From IMG/VR virus record IMGVR_UViG_2548876941_000012: DNA of 32,850 nucleotides. One strand, written 5' to 3'. The position numbers and the translations under genes were made by a program. Of this stretch, positions 19,076 through 23,811 are shown piece by piece; position 1 is the stretch's first letter; each line of letters begins with the position of its first letter. A model generated the notes under the pieces. It saw only the letters and a program-made list of their open reading frames with translations. It ran no database searches and was not told where the DNA came from. This stretch comes from a virus. Its lineage: Duplodnaviria; Heunggongvirae; Uroviricota; Caudoviricetes.

Positions 19076-19471
19076 ATGGATCGCAATACCCCCTATCGTG
19101 ACGGCGAACTGAACCCGGTGCCGGTTGCCGCTGCGACCGAAATTTTTGGTGGTCATATGGTGGCCGTTAACGCATCCGGTTATGCCGTTCCGGCCAGTGC
19201 CACGGCCTCACAGATTACGCTGGGCGTGTCTGATGGCTGGGTGGATAACAGCAAGGGCAGCGATGGCGACGCCACCGTTCTGGTGCGTTGCGGCAAAGAT
19301 TTTCTGATGGTGAACAGCACCTCAGACCCTGTCACACAATCGCAGGTCGGCAAGCTGTGCTACGTGGAAGACAGCGTGACCGTGGCAAAAACCGACAACA
19401 GCAGCGCCCGTCCTGTCGCAGGGAAAGTGATCGGCATCTGTGGCGATGGCGTCTGGGTTCATTTCAGTTAA
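19076..19471 (+). CDS. putative head structural/decoration protein
   Basis: 131-aa Gly/Val/Ser-rich ORF starting at the stop of the I gene (TAAATG); between scaffold and major capsid genes. Function inferred from position only. Confidence 0.45.
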   Translation: MDRNTPYRDGELNPVPVAAATEIFGGHMVAVNASGYAVPASATASQITLGVSDGWVDNSKGSDGDATVLVRCGKDFLMVNSTSDPVTQSQVGKLCYVEDSVTVAKTDNSSARPVAGKVIGICGDGVWVHFS

Positions 19472-19481
19472 GGAGCAAAAC

Positions 19482-20390
19482 GTGTTAGTCAACGTTAAAA
19501 ACGTCAAACAGATTTTTATCAATCTGAAGGTCACCTTCCAGAAAGCCTTTGACCAGTCACCAACTGACTGGCAGAAGGTGGCAATGGAAGTGCCATCAAA
19601 CGGCAAGGAAAACGACTACAGCTGGTTAAGTCGTTTCCCGAAAATGCGCGAGTGGATTGGTGACAAGGTCGTTAAATCACTGGCGGCATTTAACTACACC
19701 ATCCGTAACAAGGACTGGGAAGCCACGGTTGAAGTCGATCGTAACGACATCGAGGACGACCAGATTATGGGCTATGCCCTTCAGGCAAAAGGAGCCGGAC
19801 AGTCGGCGGCAGAACTCCCGGCAGATATTGTGGCGTCCCTTATCAGTAACGGTTTTACCAATCCCTGTTACGACGGCCAGCCGTTCTTTGATACCGACCA
19901 CCTGGTCGCCGGTAAATCGGTGTCCAACAAAGGCACCAAAAAACTCAAAGTTGGCTCGCTTGCCGAAGCGAAAGCCTCCTACGGTGCCGCCAGAACTGCC
20001 ATGCGTAGTCTGAAAGATGACGAAGGCGCATCCCTCAAAATTCGCCCGAATCTGCTGGTTGTGCCACCGGCGCTGGAGGATGACGCGAACTACCTGATGA
20101 CCGCCGAGAAGTTCCCGGACGGTACGCCGAACCCGTACCGCAATACCGCCGAAGTGCTGGTGATGCCGGAGCTGGCGTCGGATTCTGCGTGGTTCCTGTT
20201 TGACACCACCAAACCGGTGAAACCGCTGATTTATCAGTTGCGTAAAAAGCCGGTTTTTGTGGAGCAGACGGACTATAACAGCGACAACGTGTTCAAACGT
20301 AAGAAGTTCCTGTTTGGTGCTGAAGCGCGCTGTAACGGCGGTTACGGCTTCTGGCAGATGGCATTTGGTTCTGATGGTACGACGGAGTAA
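19482..20390 (+). CDS. major capsid protein (Mu T-like)
   Basis: Track ORF 19440-20390; GTG at 19482 with SD AAGGAG upstream, about 302 aa; position after protease/scaffold. Confidence 0.8.
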   Translation: MLVNVKNVKQIFINLKVTFQKAFDQSPTDWQKVAMEVPSNGKENDYSWLSRFPKMREWIGDKVVKSLAAFNYTIRNKDWEATVEVDRNDIEDDQIMGYALQAKGAGQSAAELPADIVASLISNGFTNPCYDGQPFFDTDHLVAGKSVSNKGTKKLKVGSLAEAKASYGAARTAMRSLKDDEGASLKIRPNLLVVPPALEDDANYLMTAEKFPDGTPNPYRNTAEVLVMPELASDSAWFLFDTTKPVKPLIYQLRKKPVFVEQTDYNSDNVFKRKKFLFGAEARCNGGYGFWQMAFGSDGTTE

Positions 20391-20393
20391 TGC

Positions 20394-20726
20394 ATGGAAA
20401 AGGTGATTGAAATTACCGCCCGCCGTGAGGGTTTTCGCCGCTGCGGTGTGGCACACAGTGCAACCACGAAGGCATGGCCGGTGGATGCGTTCACCCCGGA
20501 ACAGCTGGCGGTGCTGAAGGCTGACCCCATGCTGATTGTGGTGGAGCGCGATAAAGCGTCCGGTCAGAACGACGCGGCCCGGGGTGATGAACTGGCCGCA
20601 CAGCTGGATGCCGAGCGTCAGAAAGTCAGCGAACTGACGGCGCAGCTGGAAGAAGAACGCCGGAAGGTCCAGGACCTGACTGCGGAGCTTAAAGCGGCGA
20701 AGAAAACGGACAAGAAGGAGAAGTAA
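20394..20726 (+). CDS. hypothetical head-associated protein with Lys-rich coiled-coil tail
   Basis: 110 aa; C-terminus AAQLDAERQKVSELTAQLEEERRKVQDLTAELKAAKKTDKKEK. Confidence 0.5.
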   Translation: MEKVIEITARREGFRRCGVAHSATTKAWPVDAFTPEQLAVLKADPMLIVVERDKASGQNDAARGDELAAQLDAERQKVSELTAQLEEERRKVQDLTAELKAAKKTDKKEK

Positions 20727-20729
20727 CCC

Positions 20730-21161
20730 ATGTCTTACGCCACACCGGAACAGTTCATCAGGGCGTTCAGTGAACGCGAGGCGTGCACACTGACGGATGA
20801 AGAGATGACCGGGCTTATCAACGAGGAAAAGCTGGCCTCCGCGCTTGCGCGTGCCAGTGCCCAGATTGATGGCTATCTGGTGGGGCGTTACCGGACCCCG
20901 TGGCCTGACAGCCCGGGGATTCTGGTGGGTTACTGCTGCGATATCGCCCGTTATCACCTGGCGACCGATTACCGTATCTGCTCAGAAGAAATTCAGATGC
21001 GCTACCGGGACGCCATCCGCTTTCTGGAGAAAGTCGCGGCAGGACAAATCAACCTCGGGCGGGATACGTCCGGCAGCGTGATCCAGTCATCGTCACAGGT
21101 GCGTATCCGCTCCGGCTCCCGTCAGTTCGGGCGTGAGTCCACGCGGGGAGGTGCATTCTGA
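20730..21161 (+). CDS. DUF1320-like protein (Mu gp36 family)
   Basis: 143 aa; N-terminus MSYATPEQFIRAFSERE and IDGYLVGRYRTPW recalled as DUF1320 features. Confidence 0.65.
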   Translation: MSYATPEQFIRAFSEREACTLTDEEMTGLINEEKLASALARASAQIDGYLVGRYRTPWPDSPGILVGYCCDIARYHLATDYRICSEEIQMRYRDAIRFLEKVAAGQINLGRDTSGSVIQSSSQVRIRSGSRQFGRESTRGGAF

Positions 21162-21796
21162 TTACTGAAATTGAACGAGCGCTGGTTGAACGTCTGCGTT
21201 GTGGTCTGGGGAAAATGGTGCGGGAAGTCCGCACCTATGCCGGTGAACTGGATGAAGACCCGGGCCGGATTGTTCGCAGCCTTCCGGCAGCCTGGGTGAC
21301 GTTCGGCGGCATCGCGAAAACCGAACGCTATTCCACGTCACGCCAGAAATACATTGCCACCGGACGCTTTGTGGTTGTGGTGGGTGATTACAACACCCGC
21401 AGCGAACAGAGCGCCAGACAGGGAGGCACCGTCCGGGATGAAGTCGGGACAAACCAGCTGGTTGAATCCGTCCGTCGCCTGCTGACCGGTCAGGATTTGG
21501 GGCTGGAGATTGATTATTTCGAACCCGGGCGCGTCAGGACGCTGTTTAACACCGGCGTGGCAGAGCGGGCAATGTCCGTGTTTGCCTGTGAGTTTGATAC
21601 CCGCTGGGTGGAGCACGCGCTGGAGAACGGCAAATGGCCGGAGCGCGGTGCAGAAGCGGATATGGTTTTCAACCGTTACCACGGCCGTCTGTCAGACCCC
21701 GACCCGGATTTACTGCGAATTGGTACGCAATACGGCGCAGATATCTGTGGTCTGGATGAATTAAGAGAGCAACAGCATGAACAAAATGAAGGTTAA
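21161..21796 (+). CDS. DUF1834-like protein (Mu gp37 family), probable non-AUG start
   Basis: Track ORF starts at ATG 21215, but the in-frame upstream sequence ITEIERALVERLRCGLGK is open back to the previous stop and follows SD GGAGGTG; candidate starts are ATT at 21161 or CTG at 21158. Confidence 0.55.
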   Translation: MTEIERALVERLRCGLGKMVREVRTYAGELDEDPGRIVRSLPAAWVTFGGIAKTERYSTSRQKYIATGRFVVVVGDYNTRSEQSARQGGTVRDEVGTNQLVESVRRLLTGQDLGLEIDYFEPGRVRTLFNTGVAERAMSVFACEFDTRWVEHALENGKWPERGAEADMVFNRYHGRLSDPDPDLLRIGTQYGADICGLDELREQQHEQNEG

Positions 21797-22010
21797 GGCG
21801 GCTCCCGGGATGAAGTTCCCGATGGAGGATAACGCCCGGAAATACATCACCACGGAAGCGGTGATCGTTGAAAACACCGCTTATTACCGGCGCGCTGTTC
21901 AGGATGGTGACCTGATTCTGGTGGCTGAAGAGCCTGAAACGGCAGAACAGGACACCGGACCAGAAAAAGCGAAGGTGAAGAAAGAGAAACAGGTGGGCTC
22001 CGATGAGTGA
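21777..22010 (+). CDS. hypothetical protein
   Basis: 77-aa ORF overlapping both neighbours; acidic/Lys-rich C-terminus. Confidence 0.5.
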   Translation: MNKMKVKAAPGMKFPMEDNARKYITTEAVIVENTAYYRRAVQDGDLILVAEEPETAEQDTGPEKAKVKKEKQVGSDE

Positions 22011-23424
22011 AATTCAGTTTGACACCATTTCGGGCAGTATCCGTAAGCCCGGTGTGCATTTTGAGTTTAATACCCGGCTGGCCGTTAACACGTTGCCGGG
22101 TAACGAACAGCGTGTTCTGGTGATTGGCCCGATGCTGTCAGGCGGCACCGCCACGCCCCTGAATGCGGTTTCCGTGTATTCCGAAGACGAAGCGGATTTG
22201 TATTTCGGGGCCGGTTCACTGGCCGCAGCAATGGCGCGCGCGGCCATTAACGCCAACAGCTATCTGCAACTGGATGTTATCGGTATTGCAGACGGTGGTG
22301 CAGGAAAAGCGGCAACAGGCGCAGTTAAAGTCACCGGCACTGCAACCAGCAGCGGTACGCTGTCGGTATGGATTGCTGGCGAGCAGATCGCCATTAATGT
22401 GGACGTCGGGGATGAACCGTCGAAAATCATTCCGGCACTGGTGACGGCAATGACGCAGACGCCATCGCTTCTGGTCACGGGGGAATACAAACCTGACACC
22501 TCTCAACTGACAGTGACCGCCCGGACCAAAGGTACCTGGGGGAATGATATCACCCTGTCGGTATCCACCACTGCAACCGGCCTTGTAGTGGCTACCACGC
22601 CGATGGCGAGCGGCGAAATGGACCCGGATATTCAGCCCGCACTGGATGCGGTCTTTGCTGCCGGTCACAACATTCTGATTTGTCCGTTCAGTACCACACC
22701 AGCCCTTGCCGCCCTGAAGCAGCACCTGGAGAAAACCGGGAACGCGATGGAACAGCGTGGCGCGATTGGTTGTGCGGGCTGGACAGGTAGTCTGGGAAAC
22801 GGGATCACCCTTGCAGCCGGTGTGAACAGCGGGCGCGTGTCTGTCCCCTGGTATCGTGGTTCTGTGATGCTTCCTGCCGTGCTGGCCGCCATCTACGGCG
22901 CAGTAATGGCGAGCGAAGAAGACCCGGCACGCCCGCTGAACTCGCTGGCGCTGTCCGGGCTGGATGTGGTCGCCATGTCACAGCGCGAAAGCCGTAACGA
23001 GCAGGAAAGCGCCCTGCATAACGGCCTGACACCGGTTGAGGTTGGACCGGGTAATACGGTGCAGATTGTGCGTGCGGTCAGTACCTACACAGTGAACGCT
23101 CAGGGTGTGGCTGATGTCTCGTTACTGGATATCACGTCCATCAGAACGCTGGACTACACCCGCAAGGCGTGCCGCGAACGTATCAGTCTTCGCTTCCCGC
23201 GTGAAAAACTCAGCACCCGAACCATCGCAAAAGTGGAAAGCGAACTGTATGACGTGCTGCTCAAGCTGGAGGAGTCTGAAATTCTGGAGAATGTGGAAGC
23301 GAATAAGGCAAAACTGCGCGTTCAGCGAAACGGGAAAGATGCAAATCGCCTGGACTGCGCGATCCCTGCCGACGTGGTTAACGGCCTGCATGTGTTTGCC
23401 GGTCGCATCGACATGATTTTGTAA
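22003..23424 (+). CDS. tail sheath protein (Mu L-like)
   Basis: 473 aa; immediately followed by a 124-aa tube-like gene. Confidence 0.8.
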   Translation: MSEIQFDTISGSIRKPGVHFEFNTRLAVNTLPGNEQRVLVIGPMLSGGTATPLNAVSVYSEDEADLYFGAGSLAAAMARAAINANSYLQLDVIGIADGGAGKAATGAVKVTGTATSSGTLSVWIAGEQIAINVDVGDEPSKIIPALVTAMTQTPSLLVTGEYKPDTSQLTVTARTKGTWGNDITLSVSTTATGLVVATTPMASGEMDPDIQPALDAVFAAGHNILICPFSTTPALAALKQHLEKTGNAMEQRGAIGCAGWTGSLGNGITLAAGVNSGRVSVPWYRGSVMLPAVLAAIYGAVMASEEDPARPLNSLALSGLDVVAMSQRESRNEQESALHNGLTPVEVGPGNTVQIVRAVSTYTVNAQGVADVSLLDITSIRTLDYTRKACRERISLRFPREKLSTRTIAKVESELYDVLLKLEESEILENVEANKAKLRVQRNGKDANRLDCAIPADVVNGLHVFAGRIDMIL

Positions 23425-23436
23425 GGAGCCTGATAA

Positions 23437-23811
23437 ATGTCCCTGAAAGAATATATCGGCTCGATTGTGTTGGAAATTGACAGCCAGGAAATCGAGATCA
23501 CCGACCTTGATGTTCAGATCAACACCGGGCGAAAGCTGGTCAAGACCATGAACAAAACCGGCAGGGCTAAAGGCTTTGCCCGTGGCATTGCCACCTACGA
23601 ACTGTCCGTTTCGGCGGTTATTCCTGATACCAACGAGCCGGACTGGGAAAATCTGGAAGGTGTGAAAATCTCGCTGTACCCGCTCAGTAACAGCGGTAAA
23701 CGCACCTCTTATCTGGACTGCTTCACAACCGAAGTGGGTGAGAAATACACCGTCGATAATGAAGCGAAAATTGATATCAAAATGGCTGCACTCAGGAAGG
23801 TGGAAGGATGA
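23437..23811 (+). CDS. tail tube protein (Mu M-like)
   Basis: 124 aa; SD AAGGAG upstream; position after the sheath gene. Confidence 0.75.
   Translation: MSLKEYIGSIVLEIDSQEIEITDLDVQINTGRKLVKTMNKTGRAKGFARGIATYELSVSAVIPDTNEPDWENLEGVKISLYPLSNSGKRTSYLDCFTTEVGEKYTVDNEAKIDIKMAALRKVEG

Follow-up and report, generated by a model that had tools for sequence, protein, structure and literature searches.

A probable CTG start codon for the predicted tail-terminator gene of a Mu-like transposable prophage

Results

The window analysed here is the whole 32,850-nucleotide stretch of a Caudoviricetes virus record (IMGVR_UViG_2548876941_000012). It carries a gp36-like head-tail adaptor gene (PF07030, Phage_Mu_Gp36, 113.9 bits), whose product is named 'gp436 family protein' in RefSeq, followed by a gp37-like gene (PF08873, Phage_Mu_Gp37/DUF1834), a DUF2635 gene, a sheath gene (22003-23424) and a tube gene. 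The features at the junction between gp36 and the gp37-like gene are given below.

20730-21161, + strand: gp36-like head-tail adaptor gene, 143 aa
21134-21136, + strand: TGA in the gp37 frame, bounding this frame upstream
21147-21153, + strand: Shine-Dalgarno (SD) sequence GGAGGTG, within the 3' end of gp36
21156-21158, + strand: TTC, last sense codon of gp36; the stop TGA at 21159-21161 overlaps the proposed gp37 start
21158-21160, + strand: proposed initiation codon CTG, formerly TTG, forming CTGA with the gp36 stop
21161-21163, + strand: ATT, which encodes Ile2 in the proposed product and is also the alternative near-cognate start
21161-21214, + strand: N-terminal extension ITEIERALVERLRCGLGK, encoding the predicted helix alpha-1
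21215-21217, + strand: codon of the internal Met20, the earliest ATG of the frame
21158-21796, + strand: full coding sequence of the gp37-like, predicted tail-terminator protein, 212 aa plus stop

Inspection of the sequence places the earliest ATG of the gp37-like reading frame at 21215-21217, as the first-pass annotation had stated. That annotation also described the frame as open back to the stop of the preceding gene. Translation of 21101-21799 confirms the openness, which begins at 21137, but the bounding stop is the in-frame TGA at 21134-21136; the gp36 stop lies in a different frame and a gene starting at CTG 21158 overlaps it by 4 bases (CTGA). By our arithmetic an open stretch of 26 codons has a chance of about 0.3, so its length alone is not significant. 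No ATG, GTG or TTG is found in the gp37 frame between TGA 21134 and ATG 21215. Near-cognate codons in frame include ATT 21155, CTG 21158 and ATT 21161, and the in-frame residues up to the internal Met read ...C-I-L-I-T-E-I-E-R-A-L-V-E-R-L-R-C-G-L-G-K-M.

The extension upstream of the ATG is coding and conserved. With a start at 21158, the protein matches PF08873 with 169 bits (gathering threshold 25 bits), its residues 2-150 spanning positions 2-148 of the 149 in the profile. If the protein begins at the ATG, the score falls to 144.2 bits and only profile positions 20-148 are covered; the 18 codons upstream of the ATG add 25 bits. Because residue 2 aligns with profile position 2, CTG 21158 corresponds to position 1 of the Pfam profile. 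PHROG 490 is matched with 213 bits with the extension versus 188 bits without it, and the NCBIfam models give no match to either protein form. Among the matches listed, the N-terminal segment is common to 114 of 120 protein clusters, and the usual orthologue N-terminus is M-I-T-x-I-E-x-A-L/I-x-x-R-L-x-x-G-L-G-x-M. In a 55-sequence alignment, five of the 26 invariant residues of the family lie within the extension (E6, R12, L13, G16 and G18). Orthologues thus do not uniformly begin at the internal Met; just four of the listed clusters do so (P0008, P0023, P0025 and P0060). The DNA was read behind two of these four, P0023 and P0008. A TTG start lies upstream of the internal Met in P0023 (Trabulsiella, locus L068) and a CTG in P0008 (locus L069), and a genuine shorter form is rejected for both clusters, which are gene-caller truncations.

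Selection acts on the same codons. Within the clade that carries the CTG (described below), polymorphic sites in the extension are distributed over the three codon positions as 1/0/10, and pN/pS is 0.10 for codons 2-18 and 0.23 for the remaining codons. The extensions of the window and L069 differ by seven synonymous and no nonsynonymous changes; with 28% synonymous sites, seven of seven corresponds to P of about 1.5e-4 by our calculation. These data support purifying selection on the extension in the gp37 frame within this clade.

The AlphaFold2 model of the gp37-like protein has a mean pLDDT of 82.5 and a pTM of 0.73. Residues 2-20 form the first helix of the predicted fold with a pLDDT of 95, in agreement with the initial impression that the segment reads like a genuine N-terminal helix. 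The best Foldseek match is the Mu gp37 terminator 9khy (E 3.8e-7; TM 0.51 query-normalised, 0.60 target-normalised), and every one of the 23 PDB matches at E <= 1e-3 is a terminator, collar or neck protein or a structural-genomics relative. Mu gp37 (PDB 9khy, 9lj8; PMC11915804) shares just about 15% sequence identity with the window protein and was not found among PDB sequences with either the single protein or the 55-sequence profile; the two are linked only through the fold comparison. In Mu, the adaptor gp36, gp37, a small ORF and the sheath follow in the same order as here, and the cryo-EM structure identifies gp36 as the adaptor (PMC11915804). As modelled, the gp37-like product has the fold of the tail terminators of long-tailed phages (Mu gp37, lambda gpU, T5 p142, pyocin collar), its gene has their place between head-tail adaptor and sheath and tube genes, and it is the predicted tail terminator of a Mu-like transposable prophage. 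The hexameric ring capping tube and sheath is established for Mu itself (PMC11915804).

The SD sequence GGAGGTG is conserved in relatives with a TTG start. Its anti-SD pairing of -12.3 kcal/mol is the strongest among the local starts, with six neighbouring gene starts ranging from -4.6 to -8.8 kcal/mol. The motif occurs seven times in the window, in all cases on the + strand, while 4.0 copies are expected over both strands. From the end of GGAGGTG there are 4 nt to CTG 21158 and 7 nt to ATT 21161; these distances become 6 and 9 nt if only the GGAGG core is considered. The motif had been noticed at first reading, and the spacing of 8-10 nt then given for both codons is to be replaced by these values. 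CTG is thus at a functional distance, 4 nt past the paired stretch and 6 nt past the core. ATT 21155 is ruled out as a start, since just 1 nt separates it from the SD pairing. The segment 21100-21220 folds at -31.2 kcal/mol versus a shuffle mean of -39.9 kcal/mol (z = +2.4) and is less stable than 199 of 200 shuffles. By this comparison, local RNA structure that would block de novo initiation at the gp37 start is absent in 21100-21220, and strict coupling through an SD hidden in a hairpin is unsupported by the folding.

If only ATG 21215 were used, the product would be a 193-residue protein without the segment ITEIERALVERLR, and the upstream frame would be untranslated. This ATG is the sole canonical start codon in the gp37 frame, the corresponding form is annotated in 21 RefSeq genomes, and a weak G-run precedes it. 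However, an untranslated stretch would not be expected to change at third positions only and to have a pN/pS as low as 0.10, as the 18 codons before the ATG do. The extension also carries five invariant residues and the confidently modelled helix. The G-run is a GGGG 3 nt upstream, which makes the earlier statement that no SD precedes this ATG nearly right; anti-SD pairing there is predicted to reach -5.5 kcal/mol, with a spacer of 2 nt. Furthermore, several orthologues have L, I or A in place of Met20, and the Trabulsiella gene is truncated in the same manner despite its TTG, which looks like a gene-caller habit. Exclusive use of the ATG is very unlikely. The core proposal of the first-pass annotation, a non-AUG start upstream of the ATG behind a strong SD, is supported by orthologues, Pfam match, selection and structure. 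Judged from the sequence, the gp37-like protein almost certainly starts upstream of the ATG, most likely at CTG 21158, 19 codons upstream.

Homologous loci were collected by a peptide-pattern scan of viral contigs (64 loci), to which single-protein look-ups were added, and by a scan of genome contigs, where the patterns were too specific and gave 9 loci. Megablast against GenBank phage records gives no match. All 33 loci read from the CTG clade, nearly all E. coli prophages, have CTG as the codon aligned to 21158; they represent 24 distinct gp37 DNA sequences with the window included. The next relatives, at 89-57% identity, have TTG at the identical place, where it overlaps the gp36 stop by 4 nt (TTGA) behind an unchanged SD; the nearest ones outside E. 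coli come from Citrobacter, Yersinia, Trabulsiella and others. The TTG start with its TTGA overlap is found in 26 distinct sequence contexts. In a further group of relatives the TTG lies one codon upstream of the aligned position, and more distant relatives start with ATG or GTG, the ATG being within one codon of the aligned position. A neighbour-joining tree shows the CTG sequences as one clade nested within the TTG sequences, and independent origins of the CTG are rejected by this monophyly. The CTG is homologous to the TTG of the relatives, and the clade is of single origin and persistent. The T-to-C change at 21158 is silent in gp36, where TTT becomes TTC and Phe is kept. The window and L069 have a synonymous divergence of about 0.3-0.45, and the CTG is kept throughout.

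The same comparison bears on the choice between the two near-cognate codons that were originally proposed, CTG 21158 and ATT 21161. Initiation at ATT 21161, in the manner of infC and pcnB, would give 211 residues beginning with fMet-Thr-Glu-Ile, a product that differs from the CTG product by one residue. This ATT is in frame and follows the SD at an ordinary distance, 7 nt from its end and 9 nt from the core, and ATT is present at this position in every E. coli member of the CTG clade. AUU initiates at 1-2% of AUG, the class of CUG, and both confirmed non-canonical starts cited are AUU (bioRxiv 10.1101/063800). By sequence alone the two codons are inseparable, since CUG and AUU are about equally weak in reporter assays (bioRxiv 10.1101/063800) and both spacings are usable. 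The homology argues for CTG as the better supported of the two. ATT 21161 aligns with codon 2 of the orthologues, an Ile codon written as ATT, ATA or ATC in relatives and as ATC in L069, the basal member of the CTG clade. The orthologous start and position 1 of the Pfam profile align with CTG 21158 instead, and the SD-to-start spacing handed down from the TTG ancestors also fits 21158. The NCBI annotation pipeline, working independently, settled on CTG in 34 of 55 genomes. Use of ATT 21161 is therefore improbable, and CTG 21158 is kept as the proposed start.

A different possibility is that the start codon has been lost and gp37 is decaying in defective prophages. A change from TTG to CTG should lower initiation several-fold (bioRxiv 10.1101/063800), and some copies are clearly degraded: gp36 and the SD have given way to an IS3 element in strain C5, and the tail-fibre end of the E2348/69 prophage looks rearranged. 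Against this, all 24 distinct gp37 sequences of the CTG clade are intact ORFs, with pN/pS at 0.10 in the extension and 0.23 over the gene, and the CTG persists over the synonymous divergence between the window and L069. Insertion sites also vary among strains. In each of four genomes the right-hand junction of the prophage lies elsewhere, namely at eutC, in a cbtA/yeeW region, inside another prophage and next to fadR, and one copy is found on a plasmid. The differing chromosomal sites indicate that the CTG lineage stayed mobile and kept integrating after the CTG arose. They are evidence of transposition or integration, by which infectious virions are not strictly proven. Decay of gp37 is, on this balance, a poor candidate with very little probability.

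A start codon would also be unneeded if gp36 and gp37 were fused through a programmed -1 frameshift in the last gp36 codons. Relative to gp36, gp37 lies in the -1 frame, which is open for seven codons before the CTG, and an SD-like element lies within these codons. Such elements can stimulate frameshifting, as in dnaX and prfB. Yet no slippery heptamer of the form X XXY YYZ is present in 21137-21158, where the zero frame reads TCC ACG CGG GGA GGT GCA TTC, and the fusion is rejected because this site is absent. At the gp37 site, relatives begin with a normal TTG or ATG codon. Furthermore, adaptor and terminator are separate proteins in Mu virions, with 12 and 6 copies (PMC11915804). We consider such a fusion extremely improbable.

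Discussion

We propose that a 212-residue Mu-like terminator is made from CTG 21158, a codon descended from a TTG start, and regard this full account as likely. CTG 21158, probably rather than the adjacent ATT, would be read by the initiator fMet-tRNA. Initiation would be driven by the very strong SD GGAGGTG, 4 nt upstream, within an unusually unstructured stretch of mRNA, with a probable contribution from ribosomes that terminate on the overlapped gp36 stop TGA (CTGA). The ancestor would have had a TTG start with a TTGA overlap and the same SD, and one T-to-C change at 21158 would have weakened the start to CTG, which was then retained across one mobile prophage clade, nearly all of it in E. 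coli. A weak start may be tolerated with a terminator needed at 6 copies per virion, and low expression could be sufficient or even favoured.

Near-cognate starts of this kind are known in E. coli. CUG initiates there at 1-2% of AUG and gives an N-terminal Met (bioRxiv 10.1101/063800). The CTG starts of hda and yfjD were verified by start-codon mutagenesis (EcoGene 3.0, PMC3531124). As in these two genes, the CTG of the gp37-like gene is the sole plausible start that includes the conserved N-terminus, an SD lies upstream of it, and it is predicted by sequence conservation together with inspection of the ribosome-binding site. hda and yfjD are chromosomal and confirmed by mutagenesis, whereas the gp37-like gene is a prophage structural gene with a predicted start; its CTG overlaps the upstream stop and goes back to one substitution in a TTG. 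The first-pass annotation had cited infC as precedent. It belongs to the right class of near-cognate starts, and the hda and yfjD CTG starts (PMC3531124) are more apt. With infC and pcnB the gp37-like gene shares a near-cognate start of the class at 1-2% of AUG and a low expression of a protein needed sparingly, but its homologous start is the CTG and its ATT is codon 2. The AUU start of infC underlies the autoregulation of IF3. A feedback of this type is not expected for the gp37-like gene.

The gene pairs coupled through ATGA overlaps (Huber et al. 2019, PMC6728339) are similar to the present one in the 4-nt stop/start overlap, in the SD inside the upstream gene and in that both genes encode interacting subunits, here adaptor and terminator. 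Termination-reinitiation occurs at such 4-nt overlaps in E. coli and is SD-dependent in four of five gene pairs (PMC6728339). The gp37-like start differs from them in being CTG (TTG in relatives) instead of ATG and in having no local RNA structure that suppresses de novo initiation. Since the termination-reinitiation model invokes structure for exactly this suppression, coupling may add little at the unstructured gp37 start.

One could also suppose that the CTG is selectively neutral, or has even been selected, as a setting within a coupled pair of adaptor and terminator genes, where the weak codon fixes a low terminator:adaptor ratio (6 to 12 copies per virion). Ribosomes finishing gp36 would be held by the strong SD and reinitiate largely irrespective of the codon. 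If true, an essential phage structural gene would run on CUG over long evolutionary times, and the identity of the start codon would matter little at NTGA overlaps. We consider this reading unlikely and keep to the proposed weakening of an ancestral TTG.

Starts at CTG, weak start codons preceded by a strong SD and overlaps of 4 nt are already established, and the gp37 case is tidy but ordinary. It is a clean, datable case in which a synonymous substitution in one gene alters the start codon of the next gene, which overlaps it, and in which a CUG start persists in a mobile phage lineage. Literature searches on the E2348/69 Mu-like prophage and on phage CTG starts retrieved nothing specific to the gp37-like gene.

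The consequences for public records are more practical. Among 55 complete E. coli genomes in RefSeq, 21 carry the ATG form, and the same truncated call is made in Trabulsiella. In CP059840.2 and 20 other genomes the 193-aa product is annotated as 'phage protein Gp37'. These 21 genomes, and many gene-caller outputs, present a terminator without its first helix and five invariant residues, and expressing or modelling from such records would give a truncated construct. The CTG start is already in the public annotation of the other 34 genomes (about 60%), for instance as WP_071791946.1 in NC_011601.1.

Genomic context of the gp37-like gene

The gp37-like locus is carried by a Mu-like transposable prophage, and the site lies within its late-gene region, in the following gene order.

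19440-20390: major head protein gene, upstream of the HI1506-related gene
20394-20726: HI1506-related protein
20730-21161: gp36-like adaptor (PF07030, 113.9 bits)
21158-21796, + strand: gp37-like gene, directly after gp36 (PF08873, Phage_Mu_Gp37/DUF1834)
21777-22010: small DUF2635 ORF, between the gp37-like gene and the tail sheath
22003-23424: tail sheath
23437-23811: tail tube

Between 20730 and 21800, identity with E. coli O127:H6 E2348/69 is 99.9%. A search of 5,426 complete E. coli genomes gave related DNA in 55. The single difference from E2348/69 is synonymous: at 21176-21178, Arg7 of gp37 is CGA in the window and CGG in all other members of the CTG clade (related gp37 loci with CTG at the equivalent of 21158). 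The major head gene begins at GTG 19440 in the mechanical ORF list and at ATG 19482 in RefSeq. Two RefSeq starts are also found for DUF2635, ATG 21810 in E2348/69 (66 aa, 21810-22010) and ATG 21777 in other genomes (77 aa, overlapping the gp37 end by 20 nt). Of the two, 21810 has the stronger SD pairing (-7.6 vs -4.6 kcal/mol at 21777), and the Pfam alignment, in which residues 20-51 correspond to profile positions 14-45, is compatible with either.

Reading frame and Shine-Dalgarno sequence

As the first-pass annotation described, the gp37-like frame has its first ATG at 21215 and is open upstream. It is open from 21137, and its bound is the in-frame TGA 21134-21136 rather than the stop of the preceding gene; the gp36 TGA (21159-21161) lies in another frame and shares bases with CTG 21158 as CTGA. 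No ATG, GTG or TTG is found in the gp37 frame between TGA 21134-21136 and ATG 21215, and the near-cognate codons there are ATT 21155, CTG 21158 and ATT 21161. The GGAGGTG reported ahead of CTG and ATT is present at 21147-21153, although its spacing needs correction. Its predicted pairing with the 16S rRNA 3' end is -12.3 kcal/mol, stronger than at six other nearby starts (-4.6 to -8.8 kcal/mol). ATG 21215, described as having no such sequence, is preceded by weak pairing only (-5.5 kcal/mol, spacer just 2 nt). When the 121 nt around the start were shuffled 200 times, 199 of the shuffles folded more stably than the actual sequence (z = +2.4), so the initiation region is open. Seven copies of GGAGGTG are found in the window, all on the + strand (276, 6543, 7023, 7297, 11351, 21147, 27463; 4.0 expected on both strands together), which fits repeated use of extended SD sequences in this phage.

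The stretch upstream of ATG 21215 is coding

Four independent lines (profile, orthologues, selection and structure) establish that this stretch is coding, and they support the proposed non-AUG start upstream of the ATG. The protein begun at 21158 matches PF08873 with 169 bits over profile positions 2-148 of 149, that begun at ATG 21215 with 144.2 bits over 20-148; for PHROG 490 the long and short forms score 213 and 188 bits. The N-terminal segment is present in 114 of the 120 listed orthologue clusters, usually as M-I-T-x-I-E-x-A-L/I-x-x-R-L-x-x-G-L/M-G-x-M, and 5 of the 26 invariant columns in a 55-sequence alignment (E6, R12, L13, G16, G18) fall within residues 1-18. Orthologues do not uniformly start at the internal Met: four of the six other clusters do, and the two traced in DNA are both truncated gene calls. 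A CTG identical to that of the window is found upstream in a DRR170629 contig from a truncated-call cluster. In Trabulsiella odontotermitis JNGH01000102.1 (loci L068/L070; L068 1444-1503) the deposited gp37 (201 aa, cluster P0023) begins at the internal Met, with a TTG start, TTGA overlap and SD upstream. Since this gene is truncated despite its TTG, the gene-calling artefact is general to the family and not peculiar to CTG loci. The internal Met is not a conserved alternative start, because L, I or A occupies its position in several orthologues.

Among 24 distinct CTG-clade gp37 sequences, the 18 codons of the extension (21161-21214) are polymorphic at 1, 0 and 10 sites of codon positions 1, 2 and 3. 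The pN/pS is 0.10 for codons 2-18 and 0.23 elsewhere in the gene. Between the window and L069, the most divergent clade member, all 7 changes in the extension are synonymous. This purifying selection postdates loss of the canonical start. In the AlphaFold2 model built from the alignment (mean pLDDT 82.5, pTM 0.73), residues 2-20 form a helix with pLDDT 95, in agreement with the earlier reading of the segment as a genuine N-terminal helix; a protein begun at Met20 would be without the entire first structural element. Use of ATG 21215 as the only start is at odds with how the extension has been selected, with its invariant residues and with its structure, and is very unlikely.

CTG 21158 as the putative start

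The comparison drew on DNA from 64 IMG/VR loci, 9 loci in species-representative genomes, several RefSeq E. coli loci and several contigs reached via single proteins. In the CTG clade, which consists almost entirely of E. coli prophages, all 33 loci have CTG at the equivalent of 21158. The next relatives outside this clade carry TTG in precisely the same place, preceded by the same cggggaggtgcattTTGatt and overlapping the gp36 stop as TTGA (protein identity: Citrobacter braakii 89%, a metagenome contig 88%, IMG/VR locus L024 87%, Trabulsiella 76%, Yersinia enterocolitica 73%). Further TTG relatives extend down to ~57% (Intestinirhabdus, Buttiauxella, Edwardsiella), and more distant ones start with ATG or GTG. 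Among 54 distinct sequence contexts, TTG occurs together with the 4-nt overlap and strong SD pairing (-7.8 to -12.6 kcal/mol) in 26. In 11, CTG occupies the aligned codon and no canonical start lies nearby; the survey assigned two more CTG loci (L069, L085) to spurious codons far upstream.

Position 21158 is also the wobble base of the final sense codon of gp36. The T-to-C change there was silent in gp36 (TTT to TTC, both Phe) and turned the putative gp37 start from TTG into CTG. In a neighbour-joining tree of codons 2-180, the CTG sequences all group in a single clade that is nested within the TTG sequences, which indicates one event, kept without reversion. Comparison with relatives thus supports a putative CTG start derived from TTG, with the strong SD and 4-nt overlap inherited from their architecture.

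Of the two codons proposed earlier, only CTG 21158 is favoured. ATT 21161 is of the same efficiency class and its spacing is usable, but relatives have codon 2 (Ile) there as ATT, ATA or ATC (ATC in L069). Because Pfam profile position 2 aligns with the Ile of ATT 21161, the family initiator Met falls on CTG 21158, and initiation at ATT is unlikely. A gp36-gp37 fusion by -1 frameshift finds no slippery heptamer and no support from relatives, and is extremely improbable.

Proposed initiation and function

The arrangement here, a 4-nt gene overlap and an SD inside the upstream gene, is classic for termination-reinitiation coupling. Termination-reinitiation operates in E. coli, where it dropped substantially on SD removal for 4 of the 5 pairs examined (PMC6728339). 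Reporter assays in E. coli place UUG in the class of 10-100% of AUG and CUG, AUU, AUC and AUA in the 1-2% class, and the N-terminal Met is retained in proteins from non-AUG starts (bioRxiv 10.1101/063800). At CUG 21158, fMet-tRNA would initiate at a low rate, aided by the strong SD. Ribosomes finishing gp36 would perhaps raise this rate, and such coupling could add to de novo initiation; strict coupling is not indicated, because no occluding RNA structure is found.

The low rate would probably be sufficient for gp37. Mu gp37 is a hexameric tail terminator docked on the dodecameric adaptor gp36 (PMC11915804); six terminator copies per virion suffice, which fits a weak start. The best PDB match of our model is the Mu terminator 9khy (E 3.8e-7, TM 0.51 query-normalised, 0.60 target); other top matches are contracted Mu 9lj8 and further tail terminators and collars, among them cyanophage A-1(L), T5 p142, pyocin R2 and lambda gpU. 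Although Mu gp37 is the closest fold match, sequence identity is ~15% and sequence-level PDB searches did not find it. Fold, Pfam family and gene order point to a probable tail-terminator function. In PHROGs, phrog_490 is labelled 'portal protein' in the head-and-packaging category, a label that looks wrong because the modelled fold and the cryo-EM structure of Mu both point to a tail terminator.

Annotation and persistence of the CTG clade

Non-canonical CTG initiation is already known, with experimentally verified CTG starts for hda and yfjD in K-12 (PMC3531124), and some RefSeq records already begin the protein at this codon; what is new is one further, putative case, whose origin is traceable to a substitution synonymous in the overlapping gene. 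The NCBI pipeline annotates WP_071791946.1 (212 aa) from CTG in NC_011601.1 and WP_000251260.1 (193 aa) from ATG in CP059840.2, the same strain. Over the 55 genomes the product is named 'DUF1834 family protein' in 34 and 'phage protein Gp37' in 21. In the nine opened records with intact gp36, the former always corresponds to the CTG start with 4-nt overlap and the latter to the ATG start; the tenth, strain C5 (IS3 in place of gp36), also has the short form. Annotation is therefore inconsistent, and 21 of 55 (38%) complete E. coli genomes with the locus hold a truncated model.

Right-hand junctions of CTG-clade prophages differ in four genomes: a truncated eutC in E2348/69, the cbeA/cbtA/yeeW region in Ecol_AZ146, the inside of another prophage in 08-00022, and fadR adjoining in M8. 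One further copy is on a 249-kb plasmid. Since the insertion sites differ, the lineage kept inserting after CTG arose, which counts against a dead gene. The C5 copy of the prophage (L085, NZ_CP010122.1, locus 1-865) is clearly degraded: a frameshifted transposase of the IS3 family stands in place of gp36 and of the SD immediately before CTG, and gp37 and downstream tail genes remain. Pseudogenisation of gp37 is highly improbable for the clade: ORFs are intact, pN/pS is low and CTG persisted across synonymous divergence of ~0.3-0.45. In E2348/69 (L086, NC_011601.1 2749500-2758500) the prophage right end abuts the truncated eutC, and ISEc13 interrupts eutA in the same operon, so this strain has two disruptions in its ethanolamine-utilisation operon.
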